From: Bryobacterales bacterium
Lineage (GTDB): Bacteria; Acidobacteriota; Terriglobia; Bryobacterales; UBA6623
Direction of reading: 5' to 3'
Assembly: GCA_963422375.2 (NCBI GenBank)
Contig: OY729428.2
Span: 2,272,001 to 2,336,000 of the forward strand
Length of the DNA: 64,000 nucleotides
Shown piece after piece: positions 26,123 to 33,518 of this stretch. The translations under genes and the position numbers were made by a program. Position 1 is the stretch's first letter, and each line of letters begins with the position of its first letter. The notes beneath the pieces are model-generated. The model worked only from the letters and a program-made list of their open reading frames with translations, made no database searches and had not been told where the DNA came from.

Positions 26123-26148
26123 TCCGCTGGCTCCGGCGAACTAAGTGG

Positions 26149-26298
26149 TGCTTGTGACAGAACGAGCAAGCCCTTAGTTTCCAGGCGGTTGCAGCAGGTC
26201 CATGGGACGAAGATCGGGCCGATCCGGGGCGGCTTGCGCGACAATCTTCGTTGAGGAACCCCCCGTGAGGACCGTTCAGGAGAACCAGCTCACCCTTC
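26149..26298 (+). mobile_element. Left end and first codons of an ISDol1-like element (truncated)
   Basis: GTGCTTGTGACAGAACG... and VRTVQENQLTL match 31171-31340. Confidence 0.8.
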
Positions 26299-26299
26299 T

Positions 26300-26628
26300 T
26301 CCGAAGGCTATGGGTCTTGGAGACACACCCCCACGGTCCGCCCCGGCGAGACGTTTCGACGGCCCGGTGGTTGGATTGACGTCAAGGACCGGCGCGGGGC
26401 GCCGTTCGTGCGGGCCTCCCTTTCGCTCGCGCTGAGGGACCGGGCATCCGGGCAGGGCCCGTCCTAGGCGAATGCCGGCCCCTCAGCGGCTCCGGACCCC
26501 GGCTCCAGGGCCGGAGCGGACTCGGCCAGCCGCCGCTTCTCGCACGCCGTCGGCGCTTCCGGGTCGATGACCGGATCGCGTTAGGGCACGCCGTCGCACA
26601 GCATCGCGAACGCGATGCGCACGATCTT
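26300..26628 (-). pseudogene. Possible IS110-family transposase C-terminal remnant with downstream non-coding end
   Basis: Minus strand reads KIVRIAFAMLCDGVP*RDPVIDPEA, resembling the IS110 tail pattern K-x-x-R-x-x-x-AMLRDG-x-PYRDP-x-ID. Confidence 0.4.
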
Positions 26629-26637
26629 GCCGACGGG

Positions 26638-27747
26638 ACCGCGCCACGAACGCAGTGGCCGCGCGGCCGCTGCCGGGCACCGCCAAGGGCGACCTGCAGG
26701 GCTTCGCGCGCGCCCGCGTCGCGCCGGGCGCGCAGCTCCGCTCCGACGAGGCGGCGGCCTACGCCGGCATGGCGGAGTTCCCGCACGAAGCTGTCAGGCA
26801 CTCCGGCGGCGAGTACGTGCGCGGGGCGGCGCATACGAACGGCATCGAATCGTTTTGGTCCCTGTTCAAGCGCGGCCTGTACGGCACCTATCACCGGATG
26901 AGCGTCCGTCATCTCGGCCGCTACCTCACGGAGTTCGCGGGACGGTGCAACGACCGCGACTGCGACACGGCGGAACGGATGCGGCGCATGGCGCGGGGCC
27001 TGGTCGGCCGGACGCTGACCTACCGGCAGCTGACCGGCAAGGCCGCGGTCGCGGCCTGAGCGGCGCCCGCCGCGCTGAGCGCGGCAGCCCGCTGCGGGCG
27101 CGCTCTTCACGCTCGGTGCGCTGCACGCTCGGTACGAGGGGCGCACCGGATGCGGAATGCCCCGGCGCGACCCCGGTCCGGACCGTCCATGCAGGCCGTC
27201 GAGCGCCGGGGATCCGCTGTCTTCGGCCCTCGCAGGGCCTGCAAGCGGCTTGCAAGGCGTGCCCTGCCACCGCCAACCGGGTTCCGCCGGGGCATGCGAG
27301 GCGGCCTCTCTAGTCCGTTCCTCGTCAAGTCCGCTGGCAGGCTCGATTCAGATACGATCCCACCCCACTCCACCCCTCTGTGCCCGCCGCGGCCGCACTC
27401 GCATGACCCCAGCTCGACACCCACCTCCCTGCTCACAGCAGTTCTAGTCGGACATGGCGTTGTCGGCACTCAGATATATAGTGCCCGTGACAAAACTCGT
27501 ATGCCCTTGACAACAAAGGCGTTAGGTCCAATCTCTCAAGGCGAAGATTTCGTTGGAATGCTACGACTAATCCGCAATCCTGGCGATTCTGGGTAGAGCG
27601 CGGAAATCTTCGCGATGGGCGTCTGAGCAACTTCCGACCTTGGGCCCTATATGTTGTGTTTGGAGATCCATCCGACATCAGGATGTAGTATGAAATGCTG
27701 ATCAGGCCAGAATTCAGGGGTTTTGTCACAAGCACTACATAATTCCC
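26638..27747 (+). mobile_element. IS1595-family copy B, 5'-truncated; right TIR interrupted by a MITE
   Basis: HTNGIESFWSLFKRG transposase C-half with TGA at 27057-27059; TIR split as ...CAGATATATA (27480) and TACATAATTCCC (27736-27747). Confidence 0.88.
27481..27735. mobile_element. 255-bp MITE with ISDol1-like ends
   Basis: Ends GTGCCCGTGACAAAA and TTTTGTCACAAGCAC; flanked by TATATA/TACATA duplication; no transposase. Confidence 0.8.
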
Positions 27748-27966
27748 AAATCAATCAGCTGGTCGTGCAGGCAGGGCACGCGCTGGCGGGGTACGAGGAA
27801 GGCGATCCGCTGAAGGCGCGGTGCGACTCGTTCGTGGTGGGAACGAGCGTGCATTACCCGACGGACGTAAGTCTGCTGTGGGACGCGTTGCGCTGCCTGA
27901 TTCGCTCTATTGCGCCGCTGTGCAAGGGGCGCGGTATCGCGGGCTGGCGGCAGAGCGCGCAGATGC
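27748..27966 (+). pseudogene. Internal fragment of an ISDol1-like transposase
   Basis: INQLVVQAGHALAGYEEGDPLKARCDSFVV...HYPTDVSLLWDA closely matches 31772-31990. Confidence 0.85.
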
Positions 27967-29600
27967 TCAGAGTTCCGAACATAGGCAGTTTTACGTTGTC
28001 CAAGAGGCTCGCGTCGGAGGGGCGCGGGACGGTGTGGCCGGGGCGATGGACCGGCCGCAGGGACTCGCGGACGGCCTTGGGGCGAGCAGCCGCGGAGGCA
28101 TGGATCGGGGCCGTGGTACCGGCACGTTCGAGCGGGAGAGCGGTGTCGCCGGTAACTGCGCCGGCCAGCCGGCGGGGACGGGTGCCGGGAGCGGTCCGGT
28201 CACCTCCGGGGAAGGCCGTCGGAGGCGACCGCGGACGCTCCGCGCGGAACCCGCCGCGGTTGGTCGCGGCTGGCTCGGGACCCGGCCGGGGGCCGCGGCC
28301 GGGCCGCCGGGGAGGCCCGCGCTTCCAGCGCTCCGCCCGAGGAGCCGCGCTAGGCCCCCGCCGGGCGCGTCGGAGCGGCCGGCAGGATTTCGTAGACCAA
28401 GCGCAGGTCCGTGCCGGGGAACACCGCCCGGGCGCGGTTGAGATCCGCGATCAGCGGTCCGAGCGCCTCGTCGCGGGCCCGCCTGGATTGGTGCAGCAGG
28501 CTCACGGCGAGGGTGCCCGCGGCCGGGTCCGGGCGCAGGCCGGCCGCGCTGCGGAACAGCGCCTGCAGCAGCTCGCGGGCCGGCTCGGGCGCGACCACGG
28601 CCGCCATGGCCGTCTCGGCCCGGCAGGCCGCCATGCGCGCGGTCTCGAGACAGGTGGCGCAGCGGCGCGGGCAGGACCGTCACGCGGTCCTCCGGGTCCA
28701 GCTCGCCCGCCGGGACGTGCTGCCGGCAGTGGCTCATGCCCCATGCCAGGCCCTTCTCGAGCGTGTCGGCCGCGGCCGGCTGCGCTTGCAGCCGGCGGCG
28801 CAGCCGGCCGAGGCACTCCTCGGTCCTCTCGCGCAGGTTCCCGGCCACGCGCCAGGGCGAGTTGGTCACCCGCGTGTCCGGAGCGACCTCCGCCAGGGCG
28901 TGCTCGGCCAGGGTGTCGAGGCCGAACTCGCTGCGCATGTACTTGAAGAAGTTCTCCTGCGTCCAGCGCGAGCGCAGCAGGCCCGCCACCTGCTCGGCGG
29001 ACAGGCTCGGGTGCGTCGTCAGCGCGGACGGCTGGCGCCGGCCCGGGCCCGGCGCGCCGGCGCGTTGCAGGGGCTGGCGCGGCGGTCGCCCGCGCCCGGC
29101 TGGCGCCGGTCGATCCGGAAGCGGATCTCGCGCGCCTTGACGCCGCCGCCCGGGGCGAAGGGCCGCTCGGCGATGCAGCCTGCCAGCTGCACCGGGCCCG
29201 AAGGGGCCTGCGCGGTGATCGCGGCCGCCTTGAAGTCGGCCTCGGGCCAGCGTTGCTCCCGCTCGTCCTTGATCCACGTGACCACGGCCACGACCTGCCG
29301 CCACAGCTGGCGGAACCGTTCCGGGCTCCAGCCGTCGCGGTCGAACACCAGCGTCAGCCGCGGCGGCGGCTCGCCCTCGGGCGGGTCCGAACCCGCCGGC
29401 AGCAGGCCCTGCGCGAGCAGCGACCGCACCAAGTCCGCCAGCGCCCGGACCATGCCGGGGTCGGCCTGGCAGTGCAGGCACGGCAGGGGCGCGCCGCCGA
29501 GAGCCGCGACCCAGTAGCTGACCGAGGCCGGCAGGGCCAGCCTCAGCCGCGGCACGCAGTGCTTGAGCAAGTTGCCGCGGCCGTGGTAGACGATTTCGAG
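27967..29600 (-). pseudogene. Degenerate putative transposase (unclassified DDE-like family), frameshifted and 5'-truncated by IS1595
   Basis: Fragments LTLVFDRDGW, RWTQENFFKYMRSEFGLD and RAETAMA...LNRARAVFPGTDLRLVYE lie in different frames. Confidence 0.65.
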
Positions 29601-29773
29601 GGGAATTATATATCTGAGTGCCGAGGCAACCGATTTTGCAAATTATCAGTCCATAAATTAATTTCATATTTCTTCCGGAGATCTGTTGACATTCGGTGGA
29701 TTATTTTGGTAGAATAGTTCCAATATATGAGGTCGTCTATGAAGCAGAAAGGTCCCGGGAAGTGGTTTCGTAA
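29601..29773 (+). mobile_element. IS1595-family copy C, left-end stub only
   Basis: TIR at 29601, promoter TTGACA-N18-TAGAAT, start MKQKGPGKWFRK, cut by the right TIR of copy D. Confidence 0.88.
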
Positions 29774-30195
29774 GGGAATTATATATCTGAGTGCCGACAA
29801 CGCCATGTCCGACGAGAACTGCTCTGATCAGGGAGGTCGGCGTCTAGCTCGGGTCATTCGAATGCGGCCGCGGTAGGCACAGCAAGGTGGGATCGTATCT
29901 GAATCGAGCCTGCCAGCGGATGTGACGAGGAAGGGACTAGAGAGGCCGTCTCGCATGCCCCGGTGGAACCCGGTTGGCGGTGGCAGGGCACCCCTTGCAA
30001 GCCGATTGCAGGCCCTGCGAGGACCGAAGACAGCGGATCCCCTGCGCTCGACGGCCTGCATGGATGGTCCGGGCCGGACTCGGGTCGCACCGGGCCATGC
30101 CGGATCCGGCGCGCCCCTCGCACCGAGCGTGAAGCGCATCGAGCGTGAAGAGTGCGCCCGCAGCGGGCTGCGGCGCTCGGCTCGGAGGGCGCCGC

Positions 30196-31038
30196 TCAGG
30201 CCGCGACCGCGGCCTTGCCGGTCAGCTGCCGGTAGGTCAGCGTCTTGCCGACCAAGCCCCGCGCCATGCGCCGCATCCGTTCCGCCGTGTCGCAGTCGCG
30301 GTCGTTGCACCGTCCCGCGAACTCCGTCAGGTAGCGACCCGGATGACGGACGCTCATCCGGTGATAGGTTCCGTACAGGCCGCGCTTGAACAGGGACCAA
30401 AACGACTCGATGCCGTTCGTATGCGCCGCCCCGCGCACGAAGCCCTGCAGGTCGCCCTTGGCGGTGCCCGGCAGCGGCCGCGCGGCCACTGCGTTCGTGG
30501 CGCGGTCCCGCGCCCCCGCCACCGGGGTCTTGCCGACGGGCCCGCGCCCGGCGCGGGCCTTCTTCCTCTCGTGCTTGTTGCGTTCCTTCTTGTTGCGCTC
30601 CTTGCCGCCGACGCAGGTCTCGTCCACCTCCGCCGGGCCGGCGAACAGGCCCTGATCGCGCTCCCGGCACGCCCGGATGCGGTGCGCGAGGTGCCAGGCC
30701 GACTTCCGGCTGACGCCCGGGTCGCGGTGCAGCTTCATGCTCGAGACGCCCTTGAGGCCGGTGGTCAGCAGGAACAGGGCCACGGCCCGGGTGCGGTAGC
30801 CGAGGCTGCCGGTGCGCACGGAAAAGCGCTTGCCGCAGCCGCGGCAACGGTACGGCATCGAAGGGTGGGCCGTGCCGGACTGCACGCTGGAGCCGCGGCA
30901 GTGGGGGCACGCGGGACCGTCCGGCCAGCGCATGGAGGCGAACCACTTTTCCGCGGATTCGTTATCGCGGAACATGGCGATCACGTCAATCAGAGTGAGG
31001 CCTTTACGAAACCACTCCCCGGGACCATTCTGCTTCAT
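30196..31038 (-). pseudogene. IS1595 transposase with in-frame internal deletions
   Basis: Zn ribbon CPHC...CRGC, EVDET and HTNGIESFW; lacks segments present in copy F and has an ERNK duplication. Confidence 0.8.
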
Positions 31039-31170
31039 AGACGACCTCATATACTGGAACTATTCTATCAAGAAAATCCACAGACTGTCAATAGATATCC
31101 GGAAGAAATATCAAATTAATTTATGGATTGATAACTTGCCAAATCGGTTGCCTCGGCACTCAGATATATA

Positions 31171-33020
31171 GTGCTTTTGACAGAACGTCGAAGCCCTTAG
31201 TTCCCAAGCGTTTGCAGCAGATCCGTGGGACAAAGATCGGGTCGATCCGAGCCGGCTTGCGCATTTCCGGGGCATTGTGCGACAATCTTCGTTGAGGAAC
31301 CGCCCGTGAGGACAGTTCAGGAGATCCAGCTCACCCTTGGCCGGACTGCAATCGAGGATATCGATCCCGACGTCCGTTCCCGCGACGATATCCCGGCCAT
31401 CTTGCTAGGAATACAATCCATCTATCGCACCGAGGAGTTGCGGGACAGGGTTTTCGGACTGCTCGAGAGCCGTATCCTCGGCCTCGGCGAGAGTAGCGGG
31501 AACGGCGGGAACGGAAGCGATCCTTCCGCAGGCGAGTCCGGCAGGATCAACCCTGCCCTCGGTCGTCCCGGCATGCAGCTGTGGAACATTCTCGTCCCGG
31601 GCCTGCTCAAGCAGGGATTGAATTGCGACTGCGGCCGCGTGACGGAGCTGGCGAACAAGCACGCGGACGTCCGGCGCTTCCTCGGTCTGAACGCGACGCT
31701 CGACGAGCGGGTCTTCAGCTACCGGACAGTCAACCGGAATCCGAAGCTTCTCACGCCCGACCTCCTCGCGGAAATCAATCAGCTGGCCGTGCGGGAAGGG
31801 CACGCGCTGGCGGGGTGCGAGGAAGGCGATCCGCTGAAGGCGCGGTGCGACTCTTTCGCGGTGGAAACGAACGTGCATTGCCCGACGGACGTGAGTCTCC
31901 TATGGGACGCGTTGCGCTGCCTGGTTCGCTCTATTGCGCCGCTGTGCAAGCGGCGCGGCATCGCCGGCTGGCGGCAGAGCGCGCGGCTGCCGAAGACGCT
32001 GAAGCAGGAATTCAAGCGGGTGCGGCAGGCGAAGAGGAGGCAAGGCAACCCGGAGAGGGTGCGGTCGTACCTGGAGGCGGCCCTGGAGATAGCGCGGCGG
32101 GCGGAGGGTGCGCTGGCGGCCCTGGCGCGGGCCGGGGAAGACCAGGGAACCTTGCGAGCGGCAAGGAGTTACCTCGGGTGCGTGCAGCTCCTGGCGGACC
32201 CGGTGGAGCGGCGCGTGCTGCGGGGGGAGAAGATCCCGCACGAGGGGAAAGTGTTCTCGATCTTCGAGGAACACACGCGCTGGTGCGTGAAAGGAAAAGC
32301 GGGGGTTCGGGTGGAGCCGGGCGTTCCGGTATGGATCGTGGAAAGCGAGCACCGATTCGTGATGAATCACGAAGTGACGTGGAAGGGCAGCGACGCGGAC
32401 GTGGCGGCGGGAATCGTCGAGGGGGCGCAGGGGCTGTACGCGGGGCTGTCGGGCTGCAGCTTCGACAAGGGCTTGCACAGCCCGGCGAACCGGACGCGCT
32501 TGGCGGAACTGCTGTCGTGCCACGCGATGCCGCGGAAGGGGAGGCTGTCGAAGGCGGCGAAGGAGACGGAAGGCGCGCCCGAATTCGCGGCTGCGAGGCA
32601 GGCGCGCCCGGCCGTGGAGTCCGCGATCAGCAATCTCGAGTGCCGCGGTCCGGACGGGGTGACGGACCGGGGAGCGGAGGGATTCGAGCGGATGATCGGG
32701 CTGGCGGTCCTGGCGGCGAACGTGCATCGAGTGGGCCGGATCGGGCGCGACAGAGAGAGGGAGCGTCTCAAGACGGGACCCTTGCCGCTGGCTACATAGG
32801 CAGTCGGCAGCGATCTGGATTGCTCTGAATAGAAACCTTGAAGAGACAAGGTTCAGGAAAATTGTACCACTAGAAGAGAACTAACTGTATCCTCATAATG
32901 AGAATGGAATATGAGGCAATGAGTTCGGGTAATTGGCGCAGTCTGTTTCTTCCATGGCTATCGTTTGGTCGGGCTCCATCGGCTAGAATCCCCGAAATAT
33001 CAGGCTTTTGTCACAAGCAC
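31171..33020 (+). mobile_element. ISNCY/ISDol1-like insertion sequence, 1850 bp, 6-bp TSD TATATA
   Basis: TIRs GTGCTTTTGACAGAA and TTTTGTCACAAGCAC; TATATA at 31165-31170 and 33021-33026. Confidence 0.88.
31306..32799 (+). CDS. ISDol1-like (IS5-related) DDE transposase, degenerate
   Basis: SRDDIPAILLG, GRPGM, RCDSF-VETNVH-PTD, GEKIPHE-KVFSIFEEHT, SFDKG and AVESAI. Confidence 0.82.
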   Translation: MRTVQEIQLTLGRTAIEDIDPDVRSRDDIPAILLGIQSIYRTEELRDRVFGLLESRILGLGESSGNGGNGSDPSAGESGRINPALGRPGMQLWNILVPGLLKQGLNCDCGRVTELANKHADVRRFLGLNATLDERVFSYRTVNRNPKLLTPDLLAEINQLAVREGHALAGCEEGDPLKARCDSFAVETNVHCPTDVSLLWDALRCLVRSIAPLCKRRGIAGWRQSARLPKTLKQEFKRVRQAKRRQGNPERVRSYLEAALEIARRAEGALAALARAGEDQGTLRAARSYLGCVQLLADPVERRVLRGEKIPHEGKVFSIFEEHTRWCVKGKAGVRVEPGVPVWIVESEHRFVMNHEVTWKGSDADVAAGIVEGAQGLYAGLSGCSFDKGLHSPANRTRLAELLSCHAMPRKGRLSKAAKETEGAPEFAAARQARPAVESAISNLECRGPDGVTDRGAEGFERMIGLAVLAANVHRVGRIGRDRERERLKTGPLPLAT

Positions 33021-33149
33021 TATATAATTCCCCTTCGAAACCGCCCCTCAAGCGAGGGCACGGAAAGCAATATCGACCGTACGGGTTACCACGGCAGCTA
33101 GGACCGCTTCCAGTTCATCCGCGTCGGCAAGGGGGCCTCACCCGCGGCC

Positions 33150-33518
33150 CTAGCAGGCGGCCCCGGGCAGCGGCAGCGGGTTCCGCGCAAATACGTATTC
33201 CTTGACCGGCCTGCCGCCTTGGACATGCTCCACGAGGATTCTCTCCAGCACCTCGCCGCTAGCGGAGTGATACCACGTTCCGTCGGGATAGACAACAGCG
33301 ATCGGCCCCTTCTCGCAAACCCTCAGGCAGTTGACCTTGCTGCGGAAGACGCATCCGTCACCCCGTGCCAAGCCCAGTTCGTCGAGGCGGTCCTTGAGGG
33401 CAGTCCATGCCGGGATAGTGACATCCCTCGGCGCGCACTTGGGCTTGGTCTGGTCGGCGCACAGCAGGATGTGGCGCGTGTAGCTCCCTGTCGGGATGCG
33501 CAGCTCGCGCGCCATCAT
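33150..33518 (-). CDS. Thioredoxin-like (2Fe-2S) ferredoxin
   Basis: HILLCADQTKPKC...CLRVCEKGPIAVVYPDGTWY. Confidence 0.88.
   Translation of the reverse strand: MMARELRIPTGSYTRHILLCADQTKPKCAPRDVTIPAWTALKDRLDELGLARGDGCVFRSKVNCLRVCEKGPIAVVYPDGTWYHSASGEVLERILVEHVQGGRPVKEYVFARNPLPLPGAAC

Follow-up and report, generated by a model that had tools for sequence, protein, structure and literature searches.

The stretch of DNA analysed here (the window; 64,000 nucleotides, G000:C2:2272001-2336000) comes from G000, a 6.0-Mb, 67% GC genome of a Bryobacterales bacterium, and contains two insertions of ISNCY-type elements inside the terminal repeats of IS1595-family insertion sequences (IS) (Table 1). One is an 1850-bp ISNCY-family IS in the left end of an IS1595 copy on the minus strand, and the other is a 255-bp miniature inverted-repeat transposable element (MITE) in the right end of another, 5'-deleted IS1595 copy. 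Both occupy the TATATA that spans positions 7-12 in the IS1595 terminal repeat and displace the outer 6-bp tip. A sequence-only reading of the window had described both nested insertions, had attributed them to two independent events, and had noted that the IS1595 end is split; the sequence bears this out at both junctions, and the inserts lie in different ends of different IS1595 copies. Because contigs from three public sequencing runs (two studies, one possibly the source sample) match over 32918-33400, the right junction of the 1850-bp element is not an assembly artefact. The same reading went on to suggest a dedicated parasitism of one IS on another, which our counts do not support. We propose that the ISNCY transposon and its MITE insert at TA-N2-TA, sometimes TA-N3-TA, duplicating the word, and that IS1595 ends are probably struck mainly as a supply of that word, since each end holds one TATATA and the word is scarce at 67% GC. 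Two inserts in IS1595 ends within the window are no more than this motif predicts.

The 1850-bp element belongs to the ISNCY family: it has a single open reading frame with an above-cut-off match to NF033593 (transpos_ISNCY_1), terminal inverted repeats, and a flanking direct repeat. In size it also fits the ISDol1 group (1600-1900 bp, 6-7 bp duplication), a presumptive label. No ISDol1 reference sequence was found in the literature supplements searched. Full elements in G000 measure 1850-1885 bp, and the window copy has drifted, with 92.7% identity to the best-preserved copy, present in two identical versions (G000:C1:1182974-1184843 and C2:254896-256765). Its transposase keeps candidate DDE residues in the motifs RCDSF, SFDKG and AVESAI and is substituted at many conserved positions. 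Because D160, D365 and E416 are invariant in the family alignment and relatives match DDE_Tnp_1 models (among seven family members, DDE_Tnp_1 in three and DDE_Tnp_1_6 in four), the ISNCY transposase is probably a DDE enzyme; a sequence search for a solved structural relative returned nothing significant. Seven of eight full-length G000 copies, including the one at 31171-33020, differ from the best-preserved copy mostly by A/T-to-G/C changes, many of them shared and many at conserved codons, and private MITE changes run opposite to this trend (33 versus 60). The bias may mark a sub-lineage that is defective and was spread in trans, or it may reflect systematic error in the sequencing.

The MITE is non-coding and is represented in G000 by 67 left and 64 right ends, with TANNTA duplications. 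The relatedness of its ends to those of the 1850-bp element, part of the sequence-only reading, holds for the termini and extends over just ~16-30 terminal bases, for which reason we rejected an origin by internal deletion of the larger element. The MITE is a partner whose ends match those of the larger element, and the shared ends and target motif suggest that it is moved in trans by the ISNCY transposase. One MITE variant contains, ~18 bp in from the MITE end, a 1.4-kb insert that has inverted repeats of 30 bp; its presence at three loci (G000:C2:1457665-1459320, C2:1438084-1439809 and C1:422841) suggests that the variant moved as a unit.

Across the whole of G000, 169 ends of these passengers (the ISNCY element and its MITE) resolve into 97 insertion events, 72 paired and 25 single, or 74 and 23 once two pairs are joined by hand. 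The 6-7 bp duplication given in the sequence-only reading is what we find: 69 of the 74 pairs have six base pairs and five have seven. The duplicated word is TA-N2-TA or TA-N3-TA in 63 of the 74, and the remaining 11 are one base off. An extended flank motif was rejected, as nothing lies outside the hexamer beyond a mild preference for G just next to it (0.50 versus 0.35), and that G is absent from both host ends. The most-used word is TAACTA/TAGTTA (13/110), not TATATA, and of two 100% identical 1870-bp ISNCY copies one sits in an IS1595 right end and the other at an unrelated TAGTTA. TANNTA is rare in G000, with 1638 occurrences in the assembly versus ~4260 expected from base composition, and roughly three quarters of genomic TATATA lies in IS1595 ends (205 empty end sites versus 69 listed elsewhere).

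Per target site, IS1595 ends are hit about as often as comparable words. Seventeen of the 97 events lie in these ends (13 in right ends, 2 in left ends and 2 where just the tip is present). When paired elements were removed and all 1522 TANNTA sites were scored, 70 were occupied; IS1595 ends and tips were occupied at 17/235, a rate similar to those of other TATATA (4/66, p=1.0) and of intergenic TANNTA (34/642, p=0.33). Genic TANNTA sites were occupied at 18/620, and all non-end sites, genes included, at 53/1287, which leaves a weak excess at ends (p=0.042), with coding status taken from our own crude codon-model gene caller (75% coding, likely under-calling). The enrichment of IS1595 repeat sites over other TATATA and AT-rich hexamers that the sequence-only reading had put up for testing is largely missing.

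Right ends of IS1595 are occupied more often than left ends (13/115 versus 2/113, p=0.006). Counting paired events only, intergenic sites were occupied at 23/388 where the GC content of 50-bp flanks was at least 0.5 and at 3/246 below it (p=0.003), the cut-off of 0.5 having been picked after the bins were seen. The TAACTA class alone gives 7/45 versus 2/46 by flank GC, and AT-rich intergenic sites within repeats were occupied at 1/65. GC-rich flanks adjoin 100/112 right ends versus 37/113 left ends, and a model based on GC expects 6.1 right-end and 3.1 left-end insertions, against 10 and 2 observed. Thus, the greater occupancy of right ends largely follows from an avoidance of AT-rich surroundings, in which most left ends lie. 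We rejected H-NS or Lsr2 as the agent of this avoidance, as a homologue of neither was found in G000 (96% complete). Older IS1595 ends are not occupied more than others.

The target motif extends well beyond G000. ISNCY-family elements score above cut-off in 18 of 61 genomes, G000 counted, and the IS1595 end seen here is limited to one or two copies in each of 4 genomes among the other 60 and is absent from the seven sampled. Among 80 fetched copies, those in G007, G019, G015 and G025 have TANNTA duplications or one-off variants; for G008 and G028 one end only falls inside the examined stretches. A further 59 loci from other taxa, spanning several phyla, include 30 that are resolvable (26 directly and four after a one-base shift) and 29 that are unresolved or spurious; 25 of the 30 have TANNTA duplications and none has TATATA. 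TANNTA targeting is a trait of the lineage that is independent of IS1595. The ISNCY elements of G034 were set aside as members of another subgroup, having other ends and an apparently shorter duplication; they represent a more distant subgroup (L071-L080) with CTAG-centred duplications and 349 first-look candidates. ISNCY copies also often enter a sibling's duplicated TANNTA and so form tandems, in 5 of 20 sampled in G019 (L023, L028, L029, L032 and L040) and in G000 at C2:2584941, C3:82042 and C3:432877.

In G007 the host is a different element. Thirteen of 45 end or event rows there fall within IS66 ends (NF033517; for example L007:230-270 and L083), a parallel that is new here. IS66 ends reading GTAACTA are occupied at 13/51 versus 0/76 for those reading GTAACTG (p=2.5e-6), two sets of ends that also differ further inside. 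Another IS66 end in this genome (G007:C1:2324551-2324560, L108) carries, at the target word, a duplication of 4 bp (TAACTAACTA), a possible footprint of an excised element.

Several observations weigh against word supply as the whole explanation. The post hoc GC cut-off and the crude gene calls have been mentioned, and neither H-NS nor Lsr2 offers itself as the agent of the avoidance of AT-rich DNA. G000 right ends exceed intergenic sites (13/115 versus 34/642, p=0.02), and IS66 ends in G007 exceed other TAACTA sites of that genome (13/51 versus 4/74, p=0.0025; word counts there covered TAACTA and TAGCTA). Three identical young G007 copies all lie in IS66 ends in one orientation, and pooling G000 and G007 after matching for GC-rich non-coding sites still gives an odds ratio of 2.0 (p=0.059). 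End rates may moreover be underestimated. Duplications differ by 3.25% per base for IS1595 (50 pairs) and 3.0% for passengers (72 pairs), and some passengers have in turn received IS1595 (6 of 13 listed abutting ends, by inspection), so the two families were active together; with such similar ages, some ends were absent when passengers jumped, denominators for ends may be inflated, and true end rates may be somewhat higher.

These points would fit a genuine two- to fourfold extra draw to transposon ends on top of the TANNTA motif, mediated by DNA shape or by bound proteins (the host transposase, or IHF/HU), with other elements' ends serving as preferred safe landing sites. In its favour, an excess is seen in both G000 and G007, whose host elements are unrelated, IS66 ends hold three of the four copies of one young G007 clade, and G019 and G023 each hold one similar IS-end junction. 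We nevertheless regard such a draw as unlikely, although not negligibly so. Significance is lost after matching (p=0.28 in G000 and 0.087 in G007), left IS1595 ends share the same first 12 inner bases and are occupied below average, IS1595 and IS66 ends have no flank sequence in common, and neutral retention by itself predicts an excess of this kind. For the G007 comparison, 50 of ~70 empty non-end sites were classified and 26 were GC-rich and non-coding, of which three that we took to be rRNA-like and one adjoining an IS66 end were then dropped; matched counts are 8/37 versus 3/25 in the stretch examined (p=0.50) and 13/51 versus ~3/34 when extrapolated (p=0.087). Of the three controls that are occupied, two are single ends with an assumed GC content. 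A true preference of about twofold, which we consider improbable, cannot be separated from neutral retention by these counts. It is quite unlikely that the ISNCY lineage hunts transposon ends in general, with its TA-NN-TA word and two- to fourfold bias tuned to words that unrelated IS families such as IS1595 and IS66 must keep there. If it did, the lineage would possess a supply of harmless landing sites that renews itself, and would disable competitors with no guide RNA.

A dedicated attack on IS1595 ends, the sense of the original proposal, is very unlikely. The model for it is IS4321/IS5075, reportedly described by Partridge and Hall in 2003 from the terminal repeats of Tn21-family transposons. 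These IS1111-group elements resemble the ISNCY element in being found repeatedly at one position of another element's terminal repeat (PMC11187229), and 17 independent insertions at a single position of the IS1595 end do invite the comparison. IS4321/IS5075 are DEDD enzymes that use a guide RNA and a single specific site; the ISNCY element is probably of DDE type and duplicates its target. Exclusive targeting was rejected on finding 80 of 97 events outside IS1595 ends, and with per-site occupancy matching that of other TATATA there is neither confinement to ends nor strong enrichment. Relatives that are rich in ISNCY copies lack this IS1595 end, and the transposase belongs to the ISNCY family, not to the DEDD enzymes of IS110/IS1111. 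No guide-like sequence was detected: there was no Rfam match, and the longest non-coding matches to the IS1595 end span 5-7 nt, the level of shuffled sequence.

The insertions in IS ends are independent in origin. Passengers occur in IS1595 ends in both orientations, and among 21 pairs of like orientation there is none in which host and passenger sequence are both shared; on a weakly supported tree of 56 copies, eight complete end- or tip-resident MITEs require 8 changes, against a shuffled mean of 7.6. In G007, the IS66 copies that hold the three identical passengers differ from one another as far as the insertion junction, suggesting that these passengers jumped separately and recently. Hitch-hiking behind the residual tip, by which a few insertions would have been multiplied as IS1595 or IS66 moved with their passengers, was looked for and not found in G000 or G007, and is very unlikely. 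Some composites are still bounded by an 8-bp duplication of the host (G000 has one clear case; G007 has four that are exact and one nearly so), but these are also expected when the passenger came later.

Both IS1595 hosts in the window are degenerate, and the region is a stack of nested elements. Their family is indicated by a zinc ribbon (PF12760), an ISXO2-like DDE domain (PF12762) and a match to NF033547 of 105 bits (cut-off 75); host copy 1 has an intact right end at 29774, a left end split at 31170, and a partial transposase of 284 aa (30196-31050). The split end would most likely immobilise that copy. The host ends may resemble those of the ISNwi1 group. The IS1595 copies of G000 make an AT-rich 8-bp duplication, perfect in 40 of 78 paired copies and with at most two mismatches in 50 of 78; an 8-bp direct repeat is given for an IS1595 member in PMC12561309. 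The further ISNCY copy upstream does lie at a non-IS1595 site preceded by TAAGTG, as in the sequence-only reading, and begins at 26148 instead of 26149. IS1595 copy 2 likely inserted into this older copy, since internal DNA of that copy comes next.

Table 1. Elements, target-site duplications and host copies in the nested region, in window coordinates.
Feature	Position	Strand	Basis or remark
ISNCY-family IS, 1850 bp	31171-33020	+	~14-bp imperfect terminal inverted repeats starting GTGC
ISNCY transposase reading frame	31306-32799	+	~497 aa from likely GTG start; NF033593 361.6 bits, cut-off 325
Left target-site duplication (TATATA) of 1850-bp element	31165-31170	.	Positions 7-12 of IS1595 left terminal repeat
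Right target-site duplication (TATATA) of 1850-bp element and displaced outer tip of IS1595 left end	33021-33032	.	TATATA 33021-33026, ATTCCC tip 33027-33032; contigs identical over 32918-33400
MITE, 255 bp, ISNCY-type ends	27481-27735	+	~65 genomic copies; only termini in common with full element
Left target-site duplication (TATATA) of MITE	27475-27480	.	Inside IS1595 right terminal repeat
Right MITE duplication (TACATA, one substitution) and displaced IS1595 tip	27736-27747	.	TACATA 27736-27741, tip 27742-27747; from sequence
Host IS1595 copy 1, internally deleted	29774-31170	-	1397 bp versus ~1515; PF12762, PF12760, NF033547
Host IS1595 copy 2, 3' half only, right end kept	26634-27480	+	Domain matches, comparison of genomic copies
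Left end of second, broken ISNCY copy at non-IS1595 site	26148-26297	+	TAAGTG directly before
Internal fragment of ISNCY transposase gene	27748-27967	+	Positions 610-829 of full element; part of broken second copy
Third IS1595 copy, left end, interrupted by host copy 1	29601-29773	+	Sequence comparison

Other elements contribute to the pile. A fragment of another repeat family, with at least five further genomic copies, separates the ISNCY left end from the IS1595 remnant (26296-26630), and ~27961-29600 is a broken copy of a multicopy element whose Transposase_29 (PF21804) gene is fragmented. IS1595 lies at the identical 8-bp site AAATCAAT of an ISNCY copy, in the same orientation, at 27748-27755 and at G000:C3:433388-433395, and both right ends later received ISNCY-type ends; the site may be a hot spot, or may belong to an ISNCY copy that moved carrying IS1595. 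IS1595 has also entered its own transposase gene recurrently, at one site close to the start (29766-29773, G000:C2:2145328 and C2:3087581), and sometimes its own terminal repeat.

We propose, as most likely, a mechanism in which a DDE transposase would recognise a spaced, palindrome-like TA..TA word, make a 6-7 bp staggered cut, and move both the IS and, in trans, the MITE. Sites in AT-rich surroundings would be avoided or purged, which may largely account for the sparing of promoter-side left ends. Insertions in IS ends would likely be neutral and hence retained, and every new jump of IS1595 or IS66 would renew the supply of target words, so that IS ends bearing the word, of any host family, would form a pool of sites that is large, neutral and renewable. 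The element shares with the ISNCY family a single transposase, a length of ~1.85 kb, short terminal inverted repeats, a 6-7 bp duplication and, in relatives, DDE_Tnp_1-type matches. Short AT-rich targets that are duplicated, and non-autonomous miniature copies, are also features of IS630/Tc1, whose target is TA, and of IS701 and IS1634; the ISNCY element differs in its spaced TA..TA with a variable centre, its duplication of 6 or 7 bp and its transposase family. The duplication is 4 bp in IS701 and an AT-rich 5-6 bp in IS1634, according to PMC2266710. A literature search of listings, abstracts and passages, which took in neither ISfinder nor most subscription reviews, yielded no description of a TA-N2/3-TA consensus or of AT avoidance for the ISNCY group, and no report of ISNCY elements in IS1595 or IS66 ends.

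For a poorly described ISNCY subgroup, these data now give a target rule: TA-N2/3-TA, rarely in AT-rich surroundings. They also illustrate how a seeming targeting of one element by another can arise when, in a GC-rich genome, most occurrences of a rare word lie in the ends of a second IS. G007 offers a clean natural test, in which one base of the IS66 end goes with occupancy or with none. If the residual excess at IS ends is true, it would represent a guide-free preference of a DDE transposase for the ends of other elements, and would provide a means for one IS family to limit the spread of another.

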